DNA from: Minisyncoccota bacterium
GTDB taxonomy: Bacteria > Patescibacteriota > Minisyncoccia > Phycocordibacterales > GWA1-40-21
Assembly: GCA_041659365.1 (NCBI GenBank)
Contig: JBAZYH010000003.1
Coordinates: 7,678-71,677 of the forward strand
Direction of reading: 5' to 3'
DNA length: 64,000 bases
The notes under the pieces are model-generated. The model searched no databases and had not been told where the DNA came from. It saw only the letters and a list, made by a program, of their open reading frames with translations. This document shows, piece after piece, positions 6,389-64,000 of the stretch; position 1 is the stretch's first letter, and every line of letters starts with the position of its first letter. The translations under genes and the position numbers were made by a program.

Positions 6389-6414
6389 TAAGAGTAATCT
6401 AGGTCATATTGTGT

Positions 6415-6446
6415 CTTTGCGAGTGACAGCGAAGCAATCCAGGTTA
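6415..6446. repeat. Family-C palindromic repeat (TCTTTGCGAG...GCGAAGCAATCCAGGTT)
   Basis: Reverse complement of the AACCTGGATTGCTTCGC...CTCGCAAAGA form seen at 9093-9123. Confidence 0.55.
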
Positions 6447-6460
6447 ATTAAATTTTATAA

Positions 6461-7990: not shown

Positions 7991-8069
7991 TAAAAATATC
8001 AAACTTAAAAAGATGGATCCCCCTCCTAAGGCGGGCAGGCTGTTTCTCAACAGGATGACACAGACAGCT

Positions 8070-8868: not shown

Positions 8869-9123
8869 GTGTCATTGCGAGGTGAGTGTTGGGATGGGGC
8901 CCAACACGCAAGACTCATTGAGAGCTTTTGTAATCAAAAGATCCAATGAGTGGACAGTCTCTGTAAGAGAGTAATCTGACGCTGTGCCACGTGAATGTAA
9001 TCATTTTTACGTGATCGCAATCCAGGTTAATTTGTTTTAATTTAATACAAACCTGGATTCCTGCCTACGCAGGAATGACAATACAAAAAACAAACCTGGA
9101 TTGCTTCGCCCTGCTCGCAAAGA
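8869..9123. repeat. Cluster of family-C elements (composite GTCATTGCGAG...CGCAATCCAGGTT with internal GTGTTGGGATGGGGCCCAACAC hairpin, followed by two short copies)
   Basis: 8869-9028 composite, 9050-9081 (AACCTGGATTCCTGCCTACGCAGGAATGACAA), and 9093-9123. Confidence 0.55.
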
Positions 9124-14617: not shown

Positions 14618-15976
14618 ATGGTAACAGAAATGAGAAAAATAAATGTTCGTATTCCACCTCAAAATGTTGAGTCGGAAAGAGCCTTGCTTGGTTCTATAAT
14701 GCTCCGTCCTGAAGCTCTTGTGGAAATAATGGACATACTTCGTCCTGAAGCTTTTTATTCTGAAAAACACAAAACTATTTTTGTGGGAATGACAGATCTT
14801 TATGAAAAAAGAGATCCTATAGATTTTCTTACTCTCTCTTCAAAACTTAAAGAAAAAGGTGAGCTTGAACGTATTGGTGGCATGAGTTATCTTACAGAAA
14901 TTGTAAACACAGTTCCCTCTTCTTCAAATGCTGAACACTATGCTGCTATAGTTCAAAAGAAATTCACAATGCGTAGGCTTATAGAAGCCGCTGAAGGTAT
15001 AGCTACCCTAGGATATGATGAAGAAAATGAAATCGAAGAAGTTTTAGATAAAGCTGAAAAAAGAATATATGATGTTACTAGTAAAAACCTTTCTGGAAAA
15101 TATGTAGAGATGAAAGATGTTTTGGGTGAAGCAATGGATCGTTTAGATAGACTTCATAAAACCCAAGGTGAGCTCCGTGGAGTACCTAGCGGTTTCAAAG
15201 ATCTTGATGCCAAGCTTTCTGGTTTTCAAAATTCTGACCTTATTATTCTAGCTGCTCGACCTTCCATGGGAAAAACTTCCTTTGCTCTTGATATTGCGAG
15301 AAACGCAGCTATAAGACATAGTATTCCTACCGCTATTTTTTCTCTTGAAATGAGCACACAACAGCTTGTAGATAGAATGCTTTCTGCTGAGTCTCGTGTT
15401 GACTCTTGGAAGCTTCGTACGGGTAAGCTTACTCTCGATACAGAGTTCGAACAGATTCGTGCATGTCTTGACCCTCTTTCAAAGGCACCTCTCTATATAG
15501 ATGATCAAGCTGCAAACAATATTATTAAAATTCGTTCAATTGTACGAAGACTTAAGCATGAGAAAAAACTCGGGCTTGTGATCATAGATTATTTACAGCT
15601 CATGACACCTGTTCATAGTAAAGGTAATGATAACGTCGTTCAACAAATAACAGAGATTTCCCACTCACTTAAACAGCTTGCTAAAGAGTTTGATGTACCC
15701 GTCATTGCCCTTTCACAGCTTTCAAGAGCTGTTGAACAAAGAGGTGGAAGACCTAGACTTTCAGACTTGAGAGATTCTGGTTCTATTGAGCAGGATGCCG
15801 ATGTTGTTATATTTATTCACAGAGAAATGAATGAAGAAGGTGGTGGAAGAAAACAAACAGCAGAAATACTTATAGAAAAGCACAGAAACGGTCCTACAGG
15901 TAAAGTTGAGTTATACTTTGATCAAGATAAGACTTCTTTCCTTTCGATAGATAAAGCAGACTTCGGGGACTTTTGA
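14618..15976 (+). CDS. dnaB: Replicative DNA helicase DnaB
   Basis: N-terminal ERALLGSIM, a Walker A-like SMGKTSFAL, and RecA-like C-domain motifs. Length 452 aa. Confidence 0.9.
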   Translation: MVTEMRKINVRIPPQNVESERALLGSIMLRPEALVEIMDILRPEAFYSEKHKTIFVGMTDLYEKRDPIDFLTLSSKLKEKGELERIGGMSYLTEIVNTVPSSSNAEHYAAIVQKKFTMRRLIEAAEGIATLGYDEENEIEEVLDKAEKRIYDVTSKNLSGKYVEMKDVLGEAMDRLDRLHKTQGELRGVPSGFKDLDAKLSGFQNSDLIILAARPSMGKTSFALDIARNAAIRHSIPTAIFSLEMSTQQLVDRMLSAESRVDSWKLRTGKLTLDTEFEQIRACLDPLSKAPLYIDDQAANNIIKIRSIVRRLKHEKKLGLVIIDYLQLMTPVHSKGNDNVVQQITEISHSLKQLAKEFDVPVIALSQLSRAVEQRGGRPRLSDLRDSGSIEQDADVVIFIHREMNEEGGGRKQTAEILIEKHRNGPTGKVELYFDQDKTSFLSIDKADFGDF

Positions 15977-16055
15977 TCCAGCAGGATCATGTCGCGTAGT
16001 GTCCATTGAAACGCGACATAAACTAATAGACAATTTCCTTTAATGCATTAAAACA

Positions 16056-16134
16056 AACCTGGATTACGACGCTTTGCTCGTAATGACAGAAAAGTGAGTT
16101 GTCTTTGCGAGGTAATCCGTCGCAAACCAGGTTA
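16056..16134. repeat. Family-C composite element
   Basis: AACCTGGATTACGACGCTTTGCTCGTAATGACAG ... TCTTTGCGAGGTAATCCGTCGCAAACCAGGTT. Confidence 0.55.
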
Positions 16135-16160
16135 ATTGTATAGAGATTAAATAAAATTAG

Positions 16161-16778
16161 ATGAATTCCATAGATAAACTTATAAGAATATTTTCAGAAT
16201 TTCCTGGAATAGGACCAAAGCAAGCGAGAAGGTTTGTCTACTTTCTTATTACAAGACATGAAGGTTATATTGAAGAATTTAAAAGAGAGATAACTGAGCT
16301 TAGGAATGAAATAGAAACTTGTATTGATTGTAAAAGATATTTTTCCAAAGGAACAAATAATAAAAATATTTGTAGTATTTGCGGTGACCCTACTCGTGAT
16401 AATAGTCAGCTTATGATAGTAAGCAGAGATATAGATTTTGAGAACATTGAAAAAAGTCATTTCTTTAATGGTAAATATTTTATTCTTGGAGGTGTTGTAC
16501 CAATACTTGATAAAAATCCAGAACAAAGGATTCGTCTAAAAGAACTTTTAAATCTTGTTGGTAGAATGTCAGAAAATGGATTGAAAGAAATAATAATGGG
16601 TCTTGATGCAAATTCTGAAGGTGAATATACAACCGAGATTATTAAAAATAATCTATCCCCTATTGTCACAAAATATAATATAAAAATATCAGAGCTTGGT
16701 CGTGGACTTTCTACAGGTACCGAGCTTGAATATTCTGATTCGGAGACTATTAAGAATGCATTGAAGAATAGGAGCTAG
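16161..16778 (+). CDS. recR: Recombination protein RecR
   Basis: HhH motif FPGIGPKQARRF, a C4 zinc finger CIDCKRYFSKGTNNKNICSIC, and a Toprim region. Confidence 0.9.
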   Translation: MNSIDKLIRIFSEFPGIGPKQARRFVYFLITRHEGYIEEFKREITELRNEIETCIDCKRYFSKGTNNKNICSICGDPTRDNSQLMIVSRDIDFENIEKSHFFNGKYFILGGVVPILDKNPEQRIRLKELLNLVGRMSENGLKEIIMGLDANSEGEYTTEIIKNNLSPIVTKYNIKISELGRGLSTGTELEYSDSETIKNALKNRS

Positions 16779-28964: not shown

Positions 28965-29070
28965 AATTGGTTTGCGTCCCCCCAATAGGACCCTACTAAA
29001 ACGGGCAAGTAGTTGGGTGACGTATTTTTGAAAAAATAAAACCGCGCCTGCAACATATGCTAAACGCGGT
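28965..29070 (-). repeat. Conserved hairpin module (GTCCCCCC-loop-GGGTGAC + TTTTTGAAAAAAT palindrome) plus the intrinsic terminator of the response-regulator gene
   Basis: Same architecture as the copies at 15991, 60669, 62309-62470, 62784-62858 and 63556-63630. The minus-strand terminator is CCGCGCCTGCAACATATGCTAAACGCGG followed by TTTTATTTTTT. Confidence 0.6.
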
Positions 29071-38477: not shown

Positions 38478-38565
38478 AATGTTTGATTAGTCAATGATAT
38501 ATCAAACATTTATAAAAGTCAATAAAAAAAGAATAGATACCTTATTTGTATTTTGTCTTTGCGAG

Positions 38566-38758
38566 CGAATGCGAAGCAATCCAGGATTCAAATTAAGATG
38601 GATTGCTTCCTTACAGGAACTGTGACACAGGGTTACTTCTTGTTTACTAATTCGCTTTGCTCATAAGAAAACAAAGTCGTACACTTTTCACATTTTAATT
38701 ACAAAACGTTCAAGGTCTTTCATTTGGGCCCCACCCCAAATTTCAACTCGCAAAGACG
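38566..38758. repeat. Family-C composite element with internal TTTGGGCCCCACCCCAAA hairpin
   Basis: TCTTTGCGAGCGAATGCGAAGCAATCCAGG ... CTCGCAAAGACGCC. The internal hairpin is the reverse complement of the one at 8889-8904. Confidence 0.55.
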
Positions 38759-42568: not shown

Positions 42569-43351
42569 TTAACGATTTTTCAGACACCATTCTCTGGCAT
42601 TCTGAAACATCTTAAGCCACGGCGAAGCTTCCAGATCCTTCTTCCATGATTCGGGCATATATGACCATTGCCACTTCAAGAAACACCTTTCAGGATGAGG
42701 CATCATTGCAAGATGCCGTCCATCAGGCGAACAGAGAGCCGTCAATCCGTGTCCCGAACCATTCGGGTTAAACGGATATTTTTCTGTCGGCTCATTATTC
42801 GAATCCACATAGACGAGAGGTGCAAGATTTTTCTCAAACACTTCATCTAGTATTTTCAAATTGGGAAACACCAACTTTCCTTCACCATGAGCAATATGGA
42901 TACCAAGTGTTGATCCTTCCATATCCGCAAGTAGTACTGACGGACTTGGTTGAATCTTCACTTGACTCCACCTGGACTCAAATCGCCCAGACTTGTTGTG
43001 AATAAACCGCGGTTGAATTGTTTCGTCCAATCCTTTCCACGGCACCCAACCAAGTAATGCAAACAACTGACACCCGTTACAGACTCCCAAGGAGAACGTA
43101 TCTTTCCGGTCGTAAAACCGGTCAAACATTTCTCTGAGAATCGGGTTGAACTTAATTACTCCAGCCCAACCTTTGGCACTCTCAAAGACATCCATGTACG
43201 AGAACCCGCCGGTAGCGACAATACCCTGGAATTCCTCCAGACTTATCCTTCCCGCCAGTAAGTCACTCATTGTGATGTCATAAGGATCCAAACCAGCGGC
43301 AAAAAATGCCGCCGACATTTCACGATCACCGTTCGAGCCTTCTTCACGCAA
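42569..43351 (-). pseudogene. purL: 3' fragment of a large-type FGAM synthase (purL) gene: C-terminal class-I glutamine amidotransferase domain only
   Basis: REEGSNGDREMSAAFFAAGL...GVCNGCQ...MMPHPER is collinear with the last ~255 aa of ~1300-aa PurL. The reading frame is abruptly replaced at 43352 by recombinase-derived sequence. GC content ~45%. Confidence 0.8.
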
Positions 43352-57211: not shown

Positions 57212-58334
57212 AGTTGTGTACGCAGCAAGTCTCGATCCCATCACAAATGGACATCTAAATGTTATCGAGCGTTTTGCACCACTATACGACGAATTTATCG
57301 TTGTTGTGGCTGTAGATGCTCGCAAGACATACATGTTCACTCCAGAAGAACGAGTGAGTATGACTAAGTCGGCTGTCGCTCACATTTCAAATGTTACGGT
57401 TGATGTCTGTATTGGCCGTTATGTTGTGAAATATGCCGAATCAGTTGGTGCACAGGTCATAATTCGTGGTTTGCGAAATTTCAAAGACCTCGAAGACGAA
57501 CAGGTTCTTGCGGAAGAAAATCGTAGGATATGTTCGACAATCGAAACCATCTGGGTACCTTGCTTGCCGAATCTTATGCATATAAGTTCGAGTATGGTTA
57601 AGGGACACGTTGGTATTGACCCTGACTGGGAAGAACAAGTTGTGCGTTCAGTACCCAGTATCGTAGTTACCAAACTCAAGGAGAAGTACATGCTTAACAG
57701 AGCAAAGAAACATTGGGCTTCACTAATGGCTTTACTTGGAAATCCAAAAGGATCAGAATTGGTCTTTGCGGAACTCCTTTTGAAATATAGTGAACCTCAT
57801 CGTGCTTACCATACACTCGAGCATGTTGTAAATATGCTCGATGAATTGGAATCGGTCGTCGATAAACTGAATGATAAAGACGCTGTAAAAATGGCCGTCT
57901 GGTATCATGACGTTGTTTACGATCCGATGACTAAAGATCATCACGTAGTCGCCGACAATGAAGTGAGAAGTGCATATCGAGCCGAGCTTGATCTCGAAAA
58001 GCTCGGTTTGTCTTCAAACTTTAGTGAGAGAGTTCAAGCTTTAATCATGGCAACAACACACACAGAGAAAGTCACTGACTCTGATACCATGTTTATGGTT
58101 GATCTCGATCTTGCCATTCTCGGTAAATCAGAAAAGGAATTCGAAAGTTACGAAAAAGGAATCCGCAAAGAGTATGACTGGGTATCAGAAGCCGACTTTT
58201 GTGTAGGTCGAAGCAAGGTACTTGAGTCATTTTTGAATCGTGAGACGGTATATTCTACTGAAGTCTTTCGGAGTCGGTATGAAAATACCGCTAGAAAGAA
58301 TATGGAGAAATCACTCACATTACTGAAACAGTAA
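57198..58334 (+). CDS. coaD: Phosphopantetheine adenylyltransferase (CoaD) fused to a C-terminal HD-domain phosphohydrolase
   Basis: VVYAASLDPITNGHLNVIE (PPAT HxGH-type motif), then ~230 aa with YHTLEHV...VWYHDVVYDP (HD motif). Overlaps the coaE 3' end by 14 nt. Confidence 0.7.
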   Translation: MKTRKVVYAASLDPITNGHLNVIERFAPLYDEFIVVVAVDARKTYMFTPEERVSMTKSAVAHISNVTVDVCIGRYVVKYAESVGAQVIIRGLRNFKDLEDEQVLAEENRRICSTIETIWVPCLPNLMHISSSMVKGHVGIDPDWEEQVVRSVPSIVVTKLKEKYMLNRAKKHWASLMALLGNPKGSELVFAELLLKYSEPHRAYHTLEHVVNMLDELESVVDKLNDKDAVKMAVWYHDVVYDPMTKDHHVVADNEVRSAYRAELDLEKLGLSSNFSERVQALIMATTHTEKVTDSDTMFMVDLDLAILGKSEKEFESYEKGIRKEYDWVSEADFCVGRSKVLESFLNRETVYSTEVFRSRYENTARKNMEKSLTLLKQ

Positions 58335-58341
58335 AAGCTCA

Positions 58342-58379
58342 AGAGCCTACAAAATAGAAATATTTTGTAGGCTCTTTTT
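58342..58379 (+). terminator. Rho-independent terminator
   Basis: AGAGCCTACAAAATA...TATTTTGTAGGCTCT hairpin followed by TTTTT. Confidence 0.75.
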
Positions 58380-58608
58380 AAATATATATTATATTTTATA
58401 ACTAATTTACATCATTGGTTCTATTCCTAGTCCCATCATGCAAAAAACGCTCTATGCAGAGCTAAAAAATCCTTATATTATCGCGTCTCGAGCTACGCAC
58501 GAGTTGGCTGGACGTATGGTATGAAGTTGGAACATTTTTAATACTTAAGTAATAGAAAAGGCCGACAGAAGATTAAACTCCTGTCGGCCCAAAAACCTTC
58601 CTTCCTCT

Positions 58609-59073
58609 TCACTTCTCCTTGTATTCTTCCAGAACTTGAATGAATGGGTACTGCTTTGCACTGTAAGCATAACCACGCATGATATCCCTCATACCCCGAT
58701 ATTCTTCTTTGTATCCGAGGTTAAAGGAAATGCGATTTGCCCACCAGTAGTAGTACCACCCTTCCGTTTCAATAAATTCTCTCCAGTGTCCTGGATCGAA
58801 CTGAACCAGCTTTGCACTGGCTCCACGACCCGCAGACATTACAGCCACACGAACTGGCCGGACATCCACACGAACCACAAAAACCCACGGTGGTGTTATG
58901 TGTATGCCACCTTTTTCTTGAATCCACATTTCGCCAGTAATCTTATTCCTGGCGATACCGATCTGGGTAGGTTCTGTATAGTTCACAAAACCAATGTAAA
59001 AGAAAAAGGTAATGGTCAAAGAAACAACGATCGTCTTTGACCATTTCTTTTCAAAGAGTTGATGTACGTTCAT
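58609..59073 (-). CDS. Membrane-anchored hypothetical protein, GC-rich paralog B (possible SPFH/band-7-like fold)
   Basis: Start Met shares an ATGA overlap with the upstream paralog's stop codon. Contains VRVDVRPVRVAVMSAGRGASAKLVQFDPGHWREFIE. GC content ~50%. Confidence 0.45.
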   Translation of the reverse strand: MNVHQLFEKKWSKTIVVSLTITFFFYIGFVNYTEPTQIGIARNKITGEMWIQEKGGIHITPPWVFVVRVDVRPVRVAVMSAGRGASAKLVQFDPGHWREFIETEGWYYYWWANRISFNLGYKEEYRGMRDIMRGYAYSAKQYPFIQVLEEYKEK

Positions 59074-59567
59074 TTTGTCACACTGAACATTTTGTTCGTC
59101 GAAGCTTCTGCACATTGATTTGGGGCAATTTCTTGGATTACCTCCAAAAACGGGCAATCCCTTCCACCGGCCAGATCAAAGGCATAGCATTTTAGGATCT
59201 CCAACAACCAAGTCGTGTTGTCACCAGCATCACGACCATGCCACTCAACGAATGTCTCCAGCCCGTCCGGATTGAACCGTACAAGCTTGGCATTCAACAC
59301 ACGCTGATTTGCACTGATTGTGAGCTGATAAGGACGAAGGTCAATCGCGTGCACGCTGTAACGAATCGGCGTGCGAATGACCCAGCCCGTATGGTTGACC
59401 GTCTCGATCTTGCCGGTAGCCTTGTCGAAGACGAAGCCCATCTGGTAATTGTCGACGAGCGTAACCCACAAGGCAAACCAGATGAGAAACCCGATGAAAG
59501 CGACAACCAAAGAAACAGCGAGACCAATCACGATGTTTTTAACCATATTCCTGTTAATGAATTTCAT
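59070..59567 (-). CDS. Membrane-anchored hypothetical protein, GC-rich paralog A
   Basis: N-terminal TM. VHAIDLRPYQLTISANQRVLNAKLVRFNPDGLETFVE parallels the downstream paralog. GC content ~50%. Confidence 0.45.
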   Translation of the reverse strand: MKFINRNMVKNIVIGLAVSLVVAFIGFLIWFALWVTLVDNYQMGFVFDKATGKIETVNHTGWVIRTPIRYSVHAIDLRPYQLTISANQRVLNAKLVRFNPDGLETFVEWHGRDAGDNTTWLLEILKCYAFDLAGGRDCPFLEVIQEIAPNQCAEASTNKMFSVTK

Positions 59568-59678
59568 CTTTCCTTGAACCTTTCTTTTCTTCCTAGAAAC
59601 TGCTAGGACAGTTATACCTTACAAGGTACTATAAGAATCTATATCTAATTATACACATAATTATATATATGTCAAGTG

Positions 59679-59749
59679 CTGGGGGACTTGGATTCGAACC
59701 AAAATAAACGGATTCAAAATCCGTTGTCCTACCATTAGACGATCCCCCA
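59679..59749 (-). tRNA. tRNA-Gln (anticodon UUG)
   Basis: Minus-strand sequence is TGGGGGATCGTCTAATGGTAGGACAACGGATTTTGAATCCGTTTATTTTGGTTCGAATCCAAGTCCCCCAG. It has a 7-bp acceptor stem, D-arm TAATGGTAG, anticodon stem ACGGA/TCCGT with loop TTTTGAA, and T-loop TTCGAAT. Confidence 0.8.
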
Positions 59750-59753
59750 ATAT

Positions 59754-60443
59754 TTAACCTTTCAATATACCATTAACCCAACCCTGAACCTTCCTATTTA
59801 ATGTTGAGCTCTTCAATACTTTAACGCGTAATAAGCCAAAATACAAGTCCCCTATGTTTTTTCTTTTTGTTTTTATTATATTTTTCTTAAAATAAACTGT
59901 ATCAAAAAATTTAATATCAAAACCAGTCATATTTGACCAATATTCTTTAAATCTCTGCACTTCATTTCTATGATTATCATGAATATATATTTCAAAACCC
60001 ATTTGACCTTCTTGTATTTTACATATTTTAGTTAACCATTTTAAAAATACAATAATCATCTTTGGATCAGAATTTGAAAATTTTATCCCTGAACCCGGAG
60101 CATATTCTTTCTCTTTTGAACCTTCAGCCCAGTATAAAGCTGTGCCAATAAGCCAAAGTTCTCTATCTGAGATTTTTCCGATCTCTGTTTCTGAAGAATT
60201 CAATATTCCTTTTGAAAGTTCTATTCTTTGTCTTTTTCTAGCTAAACCACCACTCAAACTTGCGAGTCTTCTCTTTTCGGTAAAAGCTTGTTTTTGATGT
60301 TTTGCTATACCCACATCTCTGAGCCATTCAGAAAGAGTCGATTTTGCTACAGGAATAATCTTGAGAATTTCCGAATAAGTTTTCCCAGATTTTCTAAGAT
60401 TAATCGCTCTAATATTTAATTCTTTTTTACGAACATTTATCAT
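59754..60443 (-). CDS. Hypothetical HTH-containing protein with possible LAGLIDADG-like motif, abutting tRNA-Gln
   Basis: N-terminal KSGKTYSEILKIIPVAKSTLSEWL (HTH). LWLIGTALYWAEGS resembles a LAGLIDADG block. Tentative. Confidence 0.35.
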   Translation of the reverse strand: MINVRKKELNIRAINLRKSGKTYSEILKIIPVAKSTLSEWLRDVGIAKHQKQAFTEKRRLASLSGGLARKRQRIELSKGILNSSETEIGKISDRELWLIGTALYWAEGSKEKEYAPGSGIKFSNSDPKMIIVFLKWLTKICKIQEGQMGFEIYIHDNHRNEVQRFKEYWSNMTGFDIKFFDTVYFKKNIIKTKRKNIGDLYFGLLRVKVLKSSTLNRKVQGWVNGILKG

Positions 60444-60487
60444 TAGTTCTAGTATACATGAATAATGTTCATAAGTATATCAATATC

Positions 60488-60518
60488 AACCTGGACTGCT
60501 TCATCATGTTCGCAAAGA
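60488..60518. repeat. Family-C palindromic repeat copy (AACCTGGA...CGCAAAGA)
   Basis: Matches the copies at 6415, 9093, 16056-16134, 38566 and 60757. Confidence 0.55.
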
Positions 60519-60574
60519 CATACAAAAATCTGTATAATAAAAAAGAATTGTACAAACAAAAGAAAGGGGGTTGC

Positions 60575-60601
60575 GATGGCAACTGCGAAGAAGACGAGAT
60601 A
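60575..60601 (+). other. Tiny ORF (MATAKKTR, 8 aa) with strong RBS inside a ~110-nt promoter-to-terminator unit
   Basis: TATAAT at 60533-60538, RBS GAAAGGGGG, then ATG. Terminator GGGTCGTTTACGACCC followed by TCTTTTTT at 60623-60652. Confidence 0.3.
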
Positions 60602-60668
60602 AGAAGTTCTCGCTAACGAGAAGGGTGGGTCGTTTACGACCCACTCTTTTTTACTTTAGCGAAAGTAT

Positions 60669-60748
60669 GTCGCGTAGTGCTTGCCCGAAACATTTGTATT
60701 CAAATAGGCGGGTCCATTGAAGCGCGACACAAACTAATAGAAAATTCC
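60669..60748 (+). repeat. Conserved hairpin module copy (expanded loop), GTCGCGT...GCGCGAC + ACAAACTAATAGAAAATTCC
   Basis: Same stem and tail as the copies at 15991 and 62309. Confidence 0.55.
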
Positions 60749-60860
60749 TTATAATTAACCTGGATTGCGACGCTTTGCTCGCAATGACAATGCAAATACT
60801 GGATTCCCCCTCCTGAGGCGGGCAGGCTATCTTCGCGGGAATAACAACACAAACTAAAAC

Positions 60861-61895
60861 CTAGTTTTTCTCGATTAGTTTCACTAAAACAAGTTCAAGT
60901 GGAAGCTCTGGAATATAAGCCTTTGTCACCATATCATAATAATTTAAGAGAGTGAGTAAAGAGTCAGAATTAATCTTTGATGGTTTTTTATCGGCAAGTC
61001 CTTTCAAGAAAATAAAATCTGAGTCAGAAAGTTCCTCTTTCAACTTCCCTTCTGCACTTTTTAGATTTCTTAAAAGTAAGATTGAGCGCATTTTGTGTAA
61101 TACTAGTCTAAAATACAAAAGCATATCTATATTTAGATCAGTAGCCTTTGATACAGCCCCTAAACCTAGTTCTAAGTTCCCTTCATCTATTGATCTAATA
61201 AAATCATTTACTATCTCGGCTCGTGGTGCACCTGTTACGAGCTCTACTTCTTCAGGAGAAACTTTATTGTCTTTTGAAGAGCTTATTACTTTCTGTAAAA
61301 TACTTTCTGCATCACGAAAAGATCCATCACCAAGTAAAGCTATGAGCTCGGCAGATGAAGGTTCTATTTTAAAATTCTCTTTTTTAGCAATAGAGATAAT
61401 TACATCCTTTAAAACCTTTTGGGTTGGTTTTTTAAAAACAAATGTCTGACATCTGGAAACTATTGTTTCTGGAATTTTGTTTGATTCAGTAGTAGCAAGT
61501 ATAAAAATAACATGACTTGGTGGTTCCTCAAGCGTTTTCAAGAGTGCATTCCAAGCTGACTTTGAAAGCATGTGTGCTTCATCTAGTATATAAACTTTAT
61601 ATTTTGATTCAAAAGGAAGACTGTTTACAGATTCATTTAGTGCGCGTATATCATCCACACCAGTATTTGATGCTGCATCTATTTCTGTAACATCATTTGA
61701 AGTTGTACCTATTTCTTTTGCAAAGATTCTTGCAATACTTGTCTTTCCTGTACCTCGTGAACCAGAAAATATATAAGCATGAGCAATATTTCCAAGTTTG
61801 ATAGATGATTCCAAAACTTTTACTATATGATCCTGACCCAATACTTCACCGAAATTTTGTGGGCGATATTTTCTATATAATGTTGTTTCTGACAT
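60861..61895 (-). CDS. dnaX: DNA polymerase III subunit gamma/tau (short form)
   Basis: YRPQNFGEVLGQ, GSRGTGKTSIARIFAKE (Walker A), and DEAHMLS (Walker B). Length 344 aa. Confidence 0.85.
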   Translation of the reverse strand: MSETTLYRKYRPQNFGEVLGQDHIVKVLESSIKLGNIAHAYIFSGSRGTGKTSIARIFAKEIGTTSNDVTEIDAASNTGVDDIRALNESVNSLPFESKYKVYILDEAHMLSKSAWNALLKTLEEPPSHVIFILATTESNKIPETIVSRCQTFVFKKPTQKVLKDVIISIAKKENFKIEPSSAELIALLGDGSFRDAESILQKVISSSKDNKVSPEEVELVTGAPRAEIVNDFIRSIDEGNLELGLGAVSKATDLNIDMLLYFRLVLHKMRSILLLRNLKSAEGKLKEELSDSDFIFLKGLADKKPSKINSDSLLTLLNYYDMVTKAYIPELPLELVLVKLIEKN

Positions 61896-62044
61896 AGGGA
61901 GATTATATCATATGAGATTAAGAATGTTGAATAGTGAATGTAGAATGTAGAATCATTATTCATAAATGGTTAAGCTACATTATTTTGTAAAATAAAAATA
62001 CCGTACTTCTCATGAAGTAAGGTATTAAGTAGTAAGTTTCATCC

Positions 62045-62185
62045 TCAAGACTCAGGTGACACAAGAAGTTCATCACCCTTACCTTCTTGCCAAATTTCGG
62101 TAATAACTTCTGCAGACACAGTGACCAAACTCAGATCTGATTCACCATCTTCTTTTGCATTTTTGTCAGGTTCTCTTTTTTTCAT
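62045..62185 (-). CDS. Small acidic protein (46 aa)
   Basis: Strong RBS AAAAAGGAGAATCTTATG. Possible promoter TTAACT-16-TATTAT upstream. Minus-strand terminator at ~61993-62015. Confidence 0.3.
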   Translation of the reverse strand: MKKREPDKNAKEDGESDLSLVTVSAEVITEIWQEGKGDELLVSPES

Positions 62186-62308
62186 AAGATTCTCCTTTTT
62201 AAAACATTCCTTAAAAATAGTAACAGATAAAAGGAAAAATACAAATAATATTATTAGAGATACTTTAGTTAATTTTAATACATTAAAGGAGGTTTCTATT
62301 TAGTTTTC

Positions 62309-62470
62309 GTCGCGCTTCAATGGACGGTGCGCGACGTGATAAAATTAATTACACAAAATTCATATATGGAAGTTGTCTATTAGTTTGCGTCCCCCTAATC
62401 GGACAGTTGGGTGACGTACTTTTGCAAAAGTAAAAATAGCACCCACCGAGAAAGTCTCAGGGGGTGCTAT
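62309..62470 (-). repeat. Composite conserved hairpin module: GTCGCGC-TTCAATGGACGGT-GCGCGAC, GTCCCCC-loop-GGGTGAC, CTTTTGCAAAAG palindrome, and a minus-strand terminator
   Basis: Two hairpin variants in tandem, then a perfect 12-bp palindrome, then ATAGCACCC...GGGTGCTAT hairpin with a T-run on the minus strand. Confidence 0.6.
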
Positions 62471-62651
62471 TGGGTTCGGCTTACGAACCCGGGCGCCGGC
62501 AGGTCAGATCAGATTAAGGGTGTAACCCCAGATCGGACCCGCACGAGCGGTGCCGTGGTTTGTCTTTTTCATTGTGTTTCCCTTTTTGCCTTTTACCGCA
62601 GGTTCATCACGATGAAGCGAGGTTTCATCAACCAAGCCTTGTACTGATTCA
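62436..62651 (-). ncRNA. Candidate ~215-nt GC-rich structured small RNA of unknown family
   Basis: Minus-strand sigma70 promoter TTGACA (62685-62680), 16-nt spacer, TATACT (62663-62658). Intrinsic terminator at 62470-62436. GC content ~55% versus ~30% background. The only ORF inside is 22 aa. Confidence 0.35.
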
Positions 62652-62657
62652 TATACA

Positions 62658-62685
62658 AGTATAGCATACCTAGTTTTTTTGTCAA
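62658..62685 (-). promoter_or_regulatory. Sigma70 promoter TTGACA-16-TATACT (minus strand)
   Basis: Perfect -35 and a near-consensus -10 with a 16-nt spacer. Confidence 0.6.
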
Positions 62686-62783
62686 GCTTTTTTGCATTTC
62701 ATCTTGTTAAGAAGTTTAAATACGTTGATAAATAAGGATATTTATGGGTAGTAATTAAAATATAAAAACATCTATTTATTTGC

Positions 62784-62858
62784 GTCGCGCTTCAATGGAC
62801 AGTGCGCGACGTGCTTCTGCTGAAGCAAAAAAAGAAGGGCGGTTCTGCTGAACCGCCC
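62784..62858 (-). repeat. Conserved hairpin module copy + minus-strand terminator
   Basis: GTCGCGCTTCAATGGACAGTGCGCGAC, then GGGCGGTTCTGCTGAACCGCCC with a T-run on the minus strand. Confidence 0.6.
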
Positions 62859-63212
62859 GTTAGAAAAGACTCGTATGTTGCTCAACTTATTACCTATCTC
62901 AAGTTTTTCCAACATTCATACAATCATAAGCTGCGTTGTTGATAAGTAAATTCAGAAGAACAGCTTACAGACAAACGAGTTAGGTGTCTGCACGTTTTTT
63001 AAAGTGGAACTTACCACTCAAAAAGTTTGTAGTCAGGAACTATCAAACACCTTGTCACTTTGCATAGTAACCTTCCTTTCTTTGAGATCTGTCTAAAGTT
63101 GATACTAATTTATTTTAAACAAAAGTCAATAAAAAAGAGGACGGAGTAAACTCCGCCCTCACCTTGTCCTTGATCTCGGTATCGGTCTTTCACCCCGTTC
63201 AGTGCGGTGGGA

Positions 63213-63320
63213 TTACAGACCTTCCTTGGCCGTGATCGAAGTCTTCATGAACGTGCCGTCAGCCGTCTTAGCCACGATGCACTCAATACCAACCATCGAA
63301 TGAGCTGTTAACTTGGGCAT
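63213..63320 (-). CDS. Small GC-rich ORF (35 aa, MPKLTAHSMVGIECIVAKTADGTFMKTSITAKEGL); may instead be part of a structured RNA
   Basis: RBS AAAGGA 10 nt upstream. Minus-strand terminator at 63128-63165. GC content far above background. Confidence 0.25.
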   Translation of the reverse strand: MPKLTAHSMVGIECIVAKTADGTFMKTSITAKEGL

Positions 63321-63555
63321 AGTCAGTTTTCCTTTAGAGAACCGATAACACACCATTACCCTAGACAAAACCGTATTTTATCAAAGCTATACTTTAACAA
63401 AACCTTTGTTACCACCAAAGGTATCTAGAGTAAGAAAATTATTACATAAGAGAAAATTTTATGCAAATTTGAAATATATAAAACAGATTCAAGATTTATG
63501 ATTCAGGATTTAAGATGAATTAAAATTCGTATAAGGAAGTTGTCTACTAGTTTGT

Positions 63556-63630
63556 GTCGCGCTTCAATGGACATTACGCGACATATTTTCGCAAAAATAA
63601 AAACGGCGGGAGTACATGACTCTCGCCGTT
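63556..63630 (-). repeat. Conserved hairpin module copy + minus-strand terminator
   Basis: GTCGCGCTTCAATGGACATTACGCGAC, then ATTTTCGCAAAAAT, then ACGGCGGGAGTACATGACTCTCGCCGT with a T-run on the minus strand. Confidence 0.6.
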
Positions 63631-63665
63631 TGGTCCTTTTAGAACCATCCATCAGCTTTCTTTGC

Positions 63666-63785
63666 CTAGGAGGTGCTGAGGGCCGTCATCGCGCCGCCGG
63701 TTGAAGTTGTCATCGAGTGTCTTACCCGACAGGTTGCCGTTGATACCGCCGTTGTGCGACCGTGTCGCTTCAGTGATCTGGCCAT
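63666..63785 (-). other. Small GC-rich unit (39-aa ORF with AAAGGAG RBS, or a structured RNA)
   Basis: ATG at 63785 lies 7 nt after AAAGGAG. An alternative out-of-frame 52-aa ORF starts at 63810. Coding status unresolved. Confidence 0.2.
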
Positions 63786-64000
63786 AATGTGCTCCTTTCA
63801 GAAACACCATTTTTTGTTTTGACCCAACTCAGTCGAGACCAATGTCCGACTCGTGCTTTGACCAAATAATTATTGCATAGGACAAAAATAATGCAAATTA
63901 AGAATGTGGATATTTTTTTAGTTTATGTTATTTCAAGAGAACTTTCGTACAGGTAAACATCGGGTGACGTGAGAAAATTCAATGGATAATGTCATCTTCT

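Follow-up and report, generated by a model that had tools for sequence, protein, structure and literature searches.

A 64,000-nt stretch of a Minisyncoccota bacterium genome (contig JBAZYH010000003.1, positions 7,678 to 71,677; hereafter the window, numbered from its first nucleotide) contains, in the spacer upstream of dnaX, a GC-rich segment bounded by a promoter and an intrinsic terminator. This candidate unit, whose coordinates refer to the minus strand unless marked otherwise, was best explained as an accessory small mRNA or dual-function RNA, a reading to which we assign a probability of about 0.45. A tiny peptide, or a dual function, is more likely than a conserved structured-RNA role. 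An earlier note, made from the letters of this DNA alone, had proposed a novel structured small RNA (sRNA); the unit is indeed an orphan without a known family, whereas its conserved structured-RNA role was not upheld by comparison with relatives.

In the reading we prefer, the segment would be an independent accessory transcription unit of ~217 nt and one cassette of a hypervariable array 5′ of dnaX. Transcription would begin near 62652 at a near-consensus extended −10 promoter, ribosomes would load at a conserved AAGG(G/A)AAAC box, and a peptide of 21–22 residues with the conserved part R-A-G-P-(I/V)-x-G-x-T would be translated. A two-hairpin 3′ module (GGGUUCG/CGAACCC, then the terminator) would end the RNA and probably stabilises it. 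The transcription, the translation and any peptide or RNA role are inferred.

Signals, fold and conserved parts of the unit

The promoter given in the earlier note was recovered, with TTGACA at 62685–62680, a 16-nt spacer and TATACT at 62663–62658. It scored 11/12, which made it the top promoter-like site within 60000–64000 and one of just six in the window, both strands counted, to reach 11/12 or better. From the promoter geometry, the start is predicted near A62652, with an RNA beginning AUGAAUCAG. The proposed terminator was also present (AUAGCACCC.CCUGAGAC-UUU-CUCGG.UGGGUGCUAU at 62470–62436, then five U residues at 62436–62432); a simple terminator scan missed it because of its internal mismatches. 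Both signals are strong and in the correct order, as expected of the self-contained promoter-to-terminator unit that had been claimed. The GC content of 62436–62652 (~217 nt) was 52.5%, near the ~55% first estimated, and reached 57.7% in the 3′ 137 nt of the predicted transcript, against 32.0% for the entire window.

Folding of the predicted transcript gave −79.3 kcal/mol (z = −4.0), a stability equalled by 0 of 200 shuffles, and the minimum free energy fold was a series of local hairpins rather than a single extended helix. The hairpin that had been reported in plus-strand spelling was confirmed as GGGUUCG-UAAGC-CGAACCC at 62490–62472. The opposite strand was equally stable (z = −4.2), and the strand is therefore not assignable from folding alone.

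A BLAST comparison of the spacer with the retrieved loci identified orthologues in L116, L128, L129 and L131, all in the dus–dnaX spacer. These four are mutually ~97% alike and represent one other lineage (L116-type below), so that the comparisons rest on two independent lineages; the DnaX protein of the L116-type contigs is ~86% identical to that of the window, and the dnaX genes of the two lineages differ at ~20% of nucleotides. L128 carries the candidate directly after an orthologue of the small unit U3, the same arrangement as in the window.

Conservation between the lineages was concentrated in a few parts. The promoter was kept as TTGACAAATATTTTAGATATGCTATACT in the four orthologous loci and in a further relative, L130. 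The 5′ region is 80 nt long in the window but 170 nt in L116, with the first ~20 nt and the Shine-Dalgarno (SD) region alone alignable. In the window and all four orthologues, 8 nt separate the AAGG(G/A)AAAC box from the ATG, and the orthologous open reading frame (ORF), MKMIDVVGHCRAGPVLGNTII, has an SD-to-ATG spacing identical to that of the window. The 22-aa ORF (MKKTNHGTARAGPIWGYTLNLI, 62572–62504) was thus present as described; the earlier note had played it down, and its SD-like box, ATG and frame turned out to be among the conserved parts, together with the region of the TGA. The most conserved stretch was a 36-nt core with the consensus GC(G/A)GGTCCG(A/G)TCT(G/T)GGGT(T/A)ACACC..ATCTGATC (~85% identity between the window and the L116-type), which forms a small hairpin with one compensatory pair. 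The stem of the 3′ hairpin was invariant in all orthologues and occurs in L130 behind a different ORF, and the terminator differed from the L116-type by compensatory changes at five pairs.

The multiple stable hairpins on which the structured-sRNA proposal relied were not recovered as a conserved feature: RNAalifold kept only the 3′ hairpin and terminator, most body pairs of the L116-type do not form in the window, and its 5′ region is of another length and sequence. A conserved overall fold is therefore unsupported across these two lineages; the covariation term of the alignment was −0.6 kcal/mol, in a test that is underpowered with two lineages. In both lineages the predicted transcripts start exactly with AUGAAU (window 62650–62652(−); L116 2409–2411). 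A possible leaderless short ORF from this AUGAAU would read MNQYKAWLMKPRFIVMNLR in the window and MNKFIRVCRCCGTPSGV in L116, with the first three to four residues alone conserved.

As the earlier note had suspected, no known RNA family accounts for the unit, which had no Rfam 15 match at the gathering score or at E ≤ 10. For the entire window, Rfam 15 at the gathering score returned one tRNA and a full-length LOOT RNA (RF03000; 46760–46884(−), 76.9 bits against a gathering score of 46.4) only, and permissive thresholds over 60400–64000 gave no credible match. ARAGORN found tRNA-Gln only, and no transfer-messenger RNA (tmRNA), in 58000–64000. Accordingly, tmRNA was rejected on the negative ARAGORN and Rfam results, RNase P for want of a match, and 6S RNA (RF00013 and relatives) given the absence of an Rfam match and a fold without a single long irregular hairpin. 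Bacterial signal recognition particle (SRP) RNA (RF00169/RF01854) was rejected with no covariance-model match on either strand at the gathering score or E ≤ 10. The octamer CAGGUCAG, which had been likened to SRP helix 8, is antisense to the candidate, since CAGGTCAG occurs solely on the plus strand (62500–62507), and the likeness is therefore inapplicable. BLAST against phage and plasmid collections found nothing similar to the candidate, scans of viral contigs gave chance matches only, and a metagenome scan for the 3′ hairpin returned the L116 contig again and otherwise chance matches in high-GC DNA.

Coding and non-coding readings of the transcript

The frame of the short ORF is open in 5/5 sequences (window, L116, L128, L129 and L131), with 22 codons in the window and 21 in the others and net length differences of 3 and 6 nt. 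Shared R and A residues are specified by differing codons (CGT/CGC and GCG/GCA), and two of the three substitutions among L116-type ORFs are synonymous, the remaining one being V to I. Sister cassettes in L130 and L128 have textbook SD sequences and, judged from these, clearly look like translated designs.

Several observations weigh against coding. The GC content at third codon positions (GC3) of the ORF is 0.64 versus a genome median of 0.20, and its codon log-likelihood is −0.02 per codon, where long ORFs have a median of 0.30; the three frames hardly differ in this respect. The SD sequence is weak (AAGG), only 10/22 residues of the peptide are identical, and the best nucleotide alignment places indels of 4+1 and 1+2 nt within the ORF, which changes the local frame and the choice of stop codon. 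The conservation pattern looks more like nucleotide-level than protein-level conservation, in a sample of only two independent lineages. A protein search with a 43-aa ORF returned only the source contig's own gene call, and neither Pfam nor NCBIfam had a match for any of the short ORFs. Finally, divergence among the L116-type contigs is only 1.4–3.2% over the entire unit with its 170-nt 5′ region, compared with 4–21% at dnaX third positions, and such a low value fits constraint across the whole RNA. The remaining spacer is also near-identical in L116, L129 and L131, which makes recombination an equally good explanation; purifying selection read from L116-type polymorphism was therefore set aside as suggestive but confounded by recombination.

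These same points bear on the best surviving alternative, a non-coding sRNA acting in trans or by binding protein, in which the 36-nt core and the 3′ module would be functional and the ORF a by-product of GC-rich sequence. We regard it as possible. It would account for a GC content well over background in the ORF and the 3′ region alike, the stable fold (z = −4.0), the atypical codon usage without frame preference, the frame-shifting indels, the compensatory pair retained in the core hairpin, the low divergence over the full L116-type transcript with its 5′ region, and a 3′ module common to units with different ORFs. Against it, the two lineages have neither the body structure nor an alignable 5′ region in common, the antisense strand is just as stable when folded, and the SD-like box and ATG stand at identical spacing before an ORF that is open in every sequence. 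A search for complementary targets in the window likewise yielded no outstanding site, with no target-like GC-rich match of at least 10 nt and AT-rich trivial matches only.

A longer antisense ORF (78 aa in the window; called as 177 aa in L129 and L131) was rejected as spurious, crossing terminators and being broken in both L116 and the window. Neither an Rfam assignment nor a conserved longer ORF, the two refuting findings named in the earlier note, was thus found for the segment.

Upstream of dnaX is also the place of the SRP RNA gene in bacteria such as Bacillus subtilis, and the candidate resembles SRP RNA (ffs; RF00169, RF01854) in its position immediately upstream of dnaX. It differs in having no covariance-model match at E ≤ 10 and in carrying the helix-8-like octamer on the other strand. 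Closer parallels to a small mRNA or dual-function RNA are offered by SgrS/SgrT, RNAIII/delta-haemolysin and SR1/SR1P, which are dual-function or ORF-bearing small RNAs. Like these, the candidate would be transcribed as a short independent RNA, from a promoter of its own to an intrinsic terminator, and would combine a very short ORF and ribosome-binding site with conserved non-coding segments. Unlike them, it is known from sequence alone, is accessory and lies within a tandem array of unrelated small units, and it has no sequence or structure relation to any of them. GC-rich intergenic islands in AT-rich genomes have been used to nominate structured non-coding RNAs, for example by DIMPL (PMC8723152). 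The candidate is like such islands in occupying a long intergenic region at a GC content ~20 points over the genome, and unlike the RNAs so nominated in that its terminal hairpins alone are kept while its body structure is not conserved.

A variable array of small units upstream of dnaX

The candidate lies in at least 2.1 kb without a long ORF upstream of dnaX (60861–61895, minus strand), the longest non-coding stretch of the window. The dnaX product, with hundreds of relatives at 77–94% identity, assigns the genome to Paceibacterota, a group of the candidate phyla radiation (CPR), and dus and dnaX are 0.5–1.2 kb apart in the relatives. Their spacers read as tandem small units, the set of which varies among relatives. 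The unit layout comprises a TTGACA-type promoter, an SD box, an ORF of 9–45 codons, a GC-rich tail and an intrinsic terminator, and some units in relatives have a TGA stop within CTGAYC followed by GGCCGCCG. The window spacer contains at least four units, namely U1, U2, U3 and the candidate.

Comparison among relatives revealed loss and replacement of the candidate. In L115, whose dnaX product (P0001) was the most similar found to that of the window (94% identity), U3 is fused directly to the closing half of the 3′ hairpin with the terminator, and the candidate body is lost. In L130 the retained promoter (91% over 100 nt) and 3′ hairpin with terminator (95%) enclose a different body of 320 nt, in which AGGAGG stands 6 nt before the ATG of a 45-aa ORF; this ORF also occurs in another unit of L128, a locus that has units with AAGAGGAGG-ATG. 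Other units occupy the place of the candidate in L119, L121, L132 and L142. The body loss, the replacement and the presence of other units elsewhere indicate that the candidate is accessory and modular.

The promoter and 3′ hairpin/terminator common to L130 and L116 around unrelated bodies suggest a cassette-like exchange. A broader proposal, which we consider rather doubtful, is that the dus–dnaX spacer is an exchange site for modular cassettes with common promoter and 3′ modules and unrelated payloads, colonised in addition by the CPR-wide repeat described below. The candidate would then be one payload and the 45-aa ORF of L130 another, and the repeat would have function or mobility at the nucleic-acid level rather than reflect mere selfish decay.

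U3 itself is conserved in L115 and L128, although its short ORF is not (9 vs 13 codons). Its downstream segment is conserved, especially at 62986–63023, with a compensatory hairpin change (CAGACA/UGUCUG vs CAGGCG/UGCCUG), and U3 gave a weak, sub-threshold preQ1-I-like match (15.9 bits vs a gathering score of 39).

The turnover of units also raises the question of whether the candidate is functionless GC-rich DNA, decaying or recently imported, with its signals as remnants of a cassette under loss. Its patchy occurrence among close relatives, the deletion derivative in L115 and the mosaic, recombining spacer are consistent with this, as are GC-rich protein genes of atypical codon usage at 58609–59567, which suggest imported DNA. 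We nevertheless consider decay improbable, given that both lineages, with dnaX genes ~20% apart, retain an intact promoter, SD/ATG, core, hairpin and terminator, and that the terminator stems have been altered by compensatory substitutions.

A cis-acting leader or attenuator, in which translation of the short ORF would decide terminator formation and thus read-through into a 46-aa ORF (62185–62045) and dnaX, is very unlikely. The candidate is upstream of both and co-oriented with them, a stop codon inside the recurrent CTGAYC motif is shared by several units, and the 5′ region shows alternative GAUGAA/UUCAUC pairings. What weakens the idea is a separate dnaX promoter, with the −10 box 6 nt before the ATG in every relative read, a position that suggests a leaderless dnaX mRNA. 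The 46-aa ORF has promoter-like sites of its own, two repeat copies and ~250 nt intervene between the terminator and the next gene, and the units downstream of the candidate differ across relatives.

A type I toxin–antitoxin-like module, with the short ORF as toxin and an antisense RNA as antitoxin, would suit a short, patchy, accessory ORF with its own promoter and terminator and a stably folding antisense strand, yet it is hardly credible for a peptide that by inspection is not hydrophobic and lacks a membrane-spanning segment, with no convincing antisense promoter in 62400–62700 and no family match.

The genomes of CPR bacteria are tiny and contain little non-coding DNA, and to our knowledge almost nothing is known of their small RNAs and small proteins. 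Against this background, a 2-kb spacer of strongly promoted, terminator-bounded units that vary among near relatives suggests a fast-evolving accessory layer of peptides or RNAs, which could bear on the episymbiotic lifestyle of CPR bacteria. The candidate alone is one orphan example of moderate interest; the small-unit array and the CPR-wide in-frame hairpin repeat are more unusual.

The flanking double-hairpin repeat and the neighbourhood

The candidate is flanked by copies of a CPR-wide double-hairpin repeat of about 45–55 nt (TGATTCTGCAGAATCA-T-GTCGCGCAGTGTCCATTGAAGCGCGAC), which could matter more than the candidate itself. The consensus comprises hairpin 1, Y-GATTC-TGCA-GAATC-R, and hairpin 2, GTCGCGY-A.TGTCCATTGAA-RCGCGAC. 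The window has six to seven copies in total. The copy adjoining the candidate is not part of the unit and is absent from the orthologous loci, and comparison with L128 (positions 744–905) shows the copy upstream of the promoter and ~85 nt of AT-rich DNA to be inserted sequence. A covariance-model search found no copy in the dus–dnaX spacers of the window's relatives, and the five copies at this locus therefore represent local colonisation. The coordinates of the main features are listed in Table 1.

Table 1. Features of the candidate unit, its array and the surrounding repeats in the window
Feature	Position	Strand	Details
Sigma-70-type promoter	62658–62685	−	−35 TTGACA, extended −10 TG (62666–62665), −10 TATACT
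5′ region of predicted transcript	62573–62652	−	80 nt; SD-like AAGGGA at 62584–62579
22-codon ORF MKKTNHGTARAGPIWGYTLNLI and TGA stop	62504–62572	−	ORF list
Internal core GCGGGUCCGAUCUGGGGUUACACCCUUAAUCUGAUC	62507–62542	−	Most conserved; overlaps 3′ half of ORF and stop region
3′ hairpin GGGUUCG-UAAGC-CGAACCC	62472–62490	−	Folding and alignment
Intrinsic terminator	62432–62470	−	15-bp interrupted stem, then U5, by folding
U1	about 63897–63600	−	Small unit of array
U2	about 63467–63137	−	Small unit of array
U3	63129–62837	−	Small unit of array
Region grouped with small-unit array	60509–60650	+	
46-aa ORF, native-looking	62185–62045	−	Codon score 0.48; downstream of candidate unit
dnaX −10 box TATAAT	61907–61902	−	Ends 6 nt before ATG at 61895 (region 61895–61930)
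Repeat copy	62385–62439	−	Model R1, 47.1 bits, E = 1.9e-11; starts in terminator U-run
Repeat copy downstream of unit	62305–62369	−	Model R1, 47.9 bits
Repeat copy upstream of promoter	62780–62834	−	Model R1, 74 bits
Repeat copy	63552–63606	−	
Repeat copy	60645–60744	+	
Repeat copy	15967–16021	+	
Repeat variant	28972–29041	−	
Second repeat family AACCTGGATTGCGACGCTTTGCTCGCAATGACA	16048–16140, 60750–60790, 6412–6450, 8014–8041, 9015–9123, 38553–38585		Also L090 1407–1449

Many CPR assemblies contain the 17-nt core GTCCATTGAARCGCGAC, often in several copies, in a scan that also gave the chance matches expected in high-GC genomes; the carriers include Saccharibacteria, Nomurabacteria, Magasanikbacteria, Paceibacteria and Yonathbacteria. 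Beyond the window, copies were surveyed in loci L001–L114, and the covariance model recovered 68 copies in 71 CPR loci. In the alignment, which was fitted to the covariance model and so favours structure, 98.9% of cells were paired, compared with at most 49% in slid controls. Seven of the 13 pairs were changed on both sides (e.g., UA:39/CG:24 and CG:39/UA:25), and the observed pair counts were reached in 0 of 500 shuffles.

In other CPR genomes, copies lie in frame within essential genes, where the repeat mostly reads R-(R/A)-(A/V)-S-M-D-(T/G)-(A/T)-R-H-D-S-A-E-S, about RRASMDTARHDSAES. Copies were found at an identical site in three genomes both in the anticodon-binding domain of a class I aminoacyl-tRNA synthetase and in a MurD-like ligase, in MsrA of two genomes, and in FtsK, an RNase T-like exonuclease, DnaG and a XerC-like recombinase. 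Compensatory changes keep the stems intact, also where in-gene sites are orthologous, and the A/V and A/T residue changes track stem covariation, which points to constraint on nucleic-acid structure. The repeat matters for annotation, as it lengthens proteins, tRNA synthetases and MurD among them, by ~15 residues; it also bears on CPR genome rearrangement and poses the question of what maintains a hairpin element in coding regions across the whole radiation.

CRISPR, integron attC, promoter and 5′-untranslated-region translation-element interpretations of the repeat were dropped given the in-frame copies in genes. An attC site is further opposed by a consensus without R''/R' core sites (RYYYAAC ... 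GTTRRRY) and by copies that are mostly single and dispersed, many of them inside genes. The nearest analogues are short multi-copy hairpin repeats such as the Rickettsia palindromic elements and REP/BIME. Like the Rickettsia elements, the repeat is multi-copy, forms hairpins and occurs both between genes and in frame within ORFs. Unlike these repeats, it measures just 45 nt, is near-identical even in CPR classes as distant as Saccharibacteria and Paceibacteria, and has stems maintained by compensatory changes at orthologous in-gene sites. No associated transposase was identified. Literature searches returned no paper containing the DNA or peptide sequence of the repeat, and an earlier description is possible.

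In the window, recR comes after dnaB, not after dnaX (15976–16161(+) and 60645–60860). The double-hairpin element and a AACCTGGATT repeat occur as a pair both upstream of recR and downstream of dnaX, an arrangement that hints at a repeat-mediated rearrangement separating former dnaX–recR neighbours.

The protein-coding ORFs at 58609–59567(−) and 42569–43351(−) have GC3 values of 0.45–0.59 compared with the genome median of 0.20 and may be imported genes; not every GC-rich island here is therefore an RNA gene. A second short hairpin-forming repeat family, AACCTGGATTGCGACGCTTTGCTCGCAATGACA, is dispersed across intergenic regions, and this type of repeat twice lies directly 3′ of the double-hairpin repeat.

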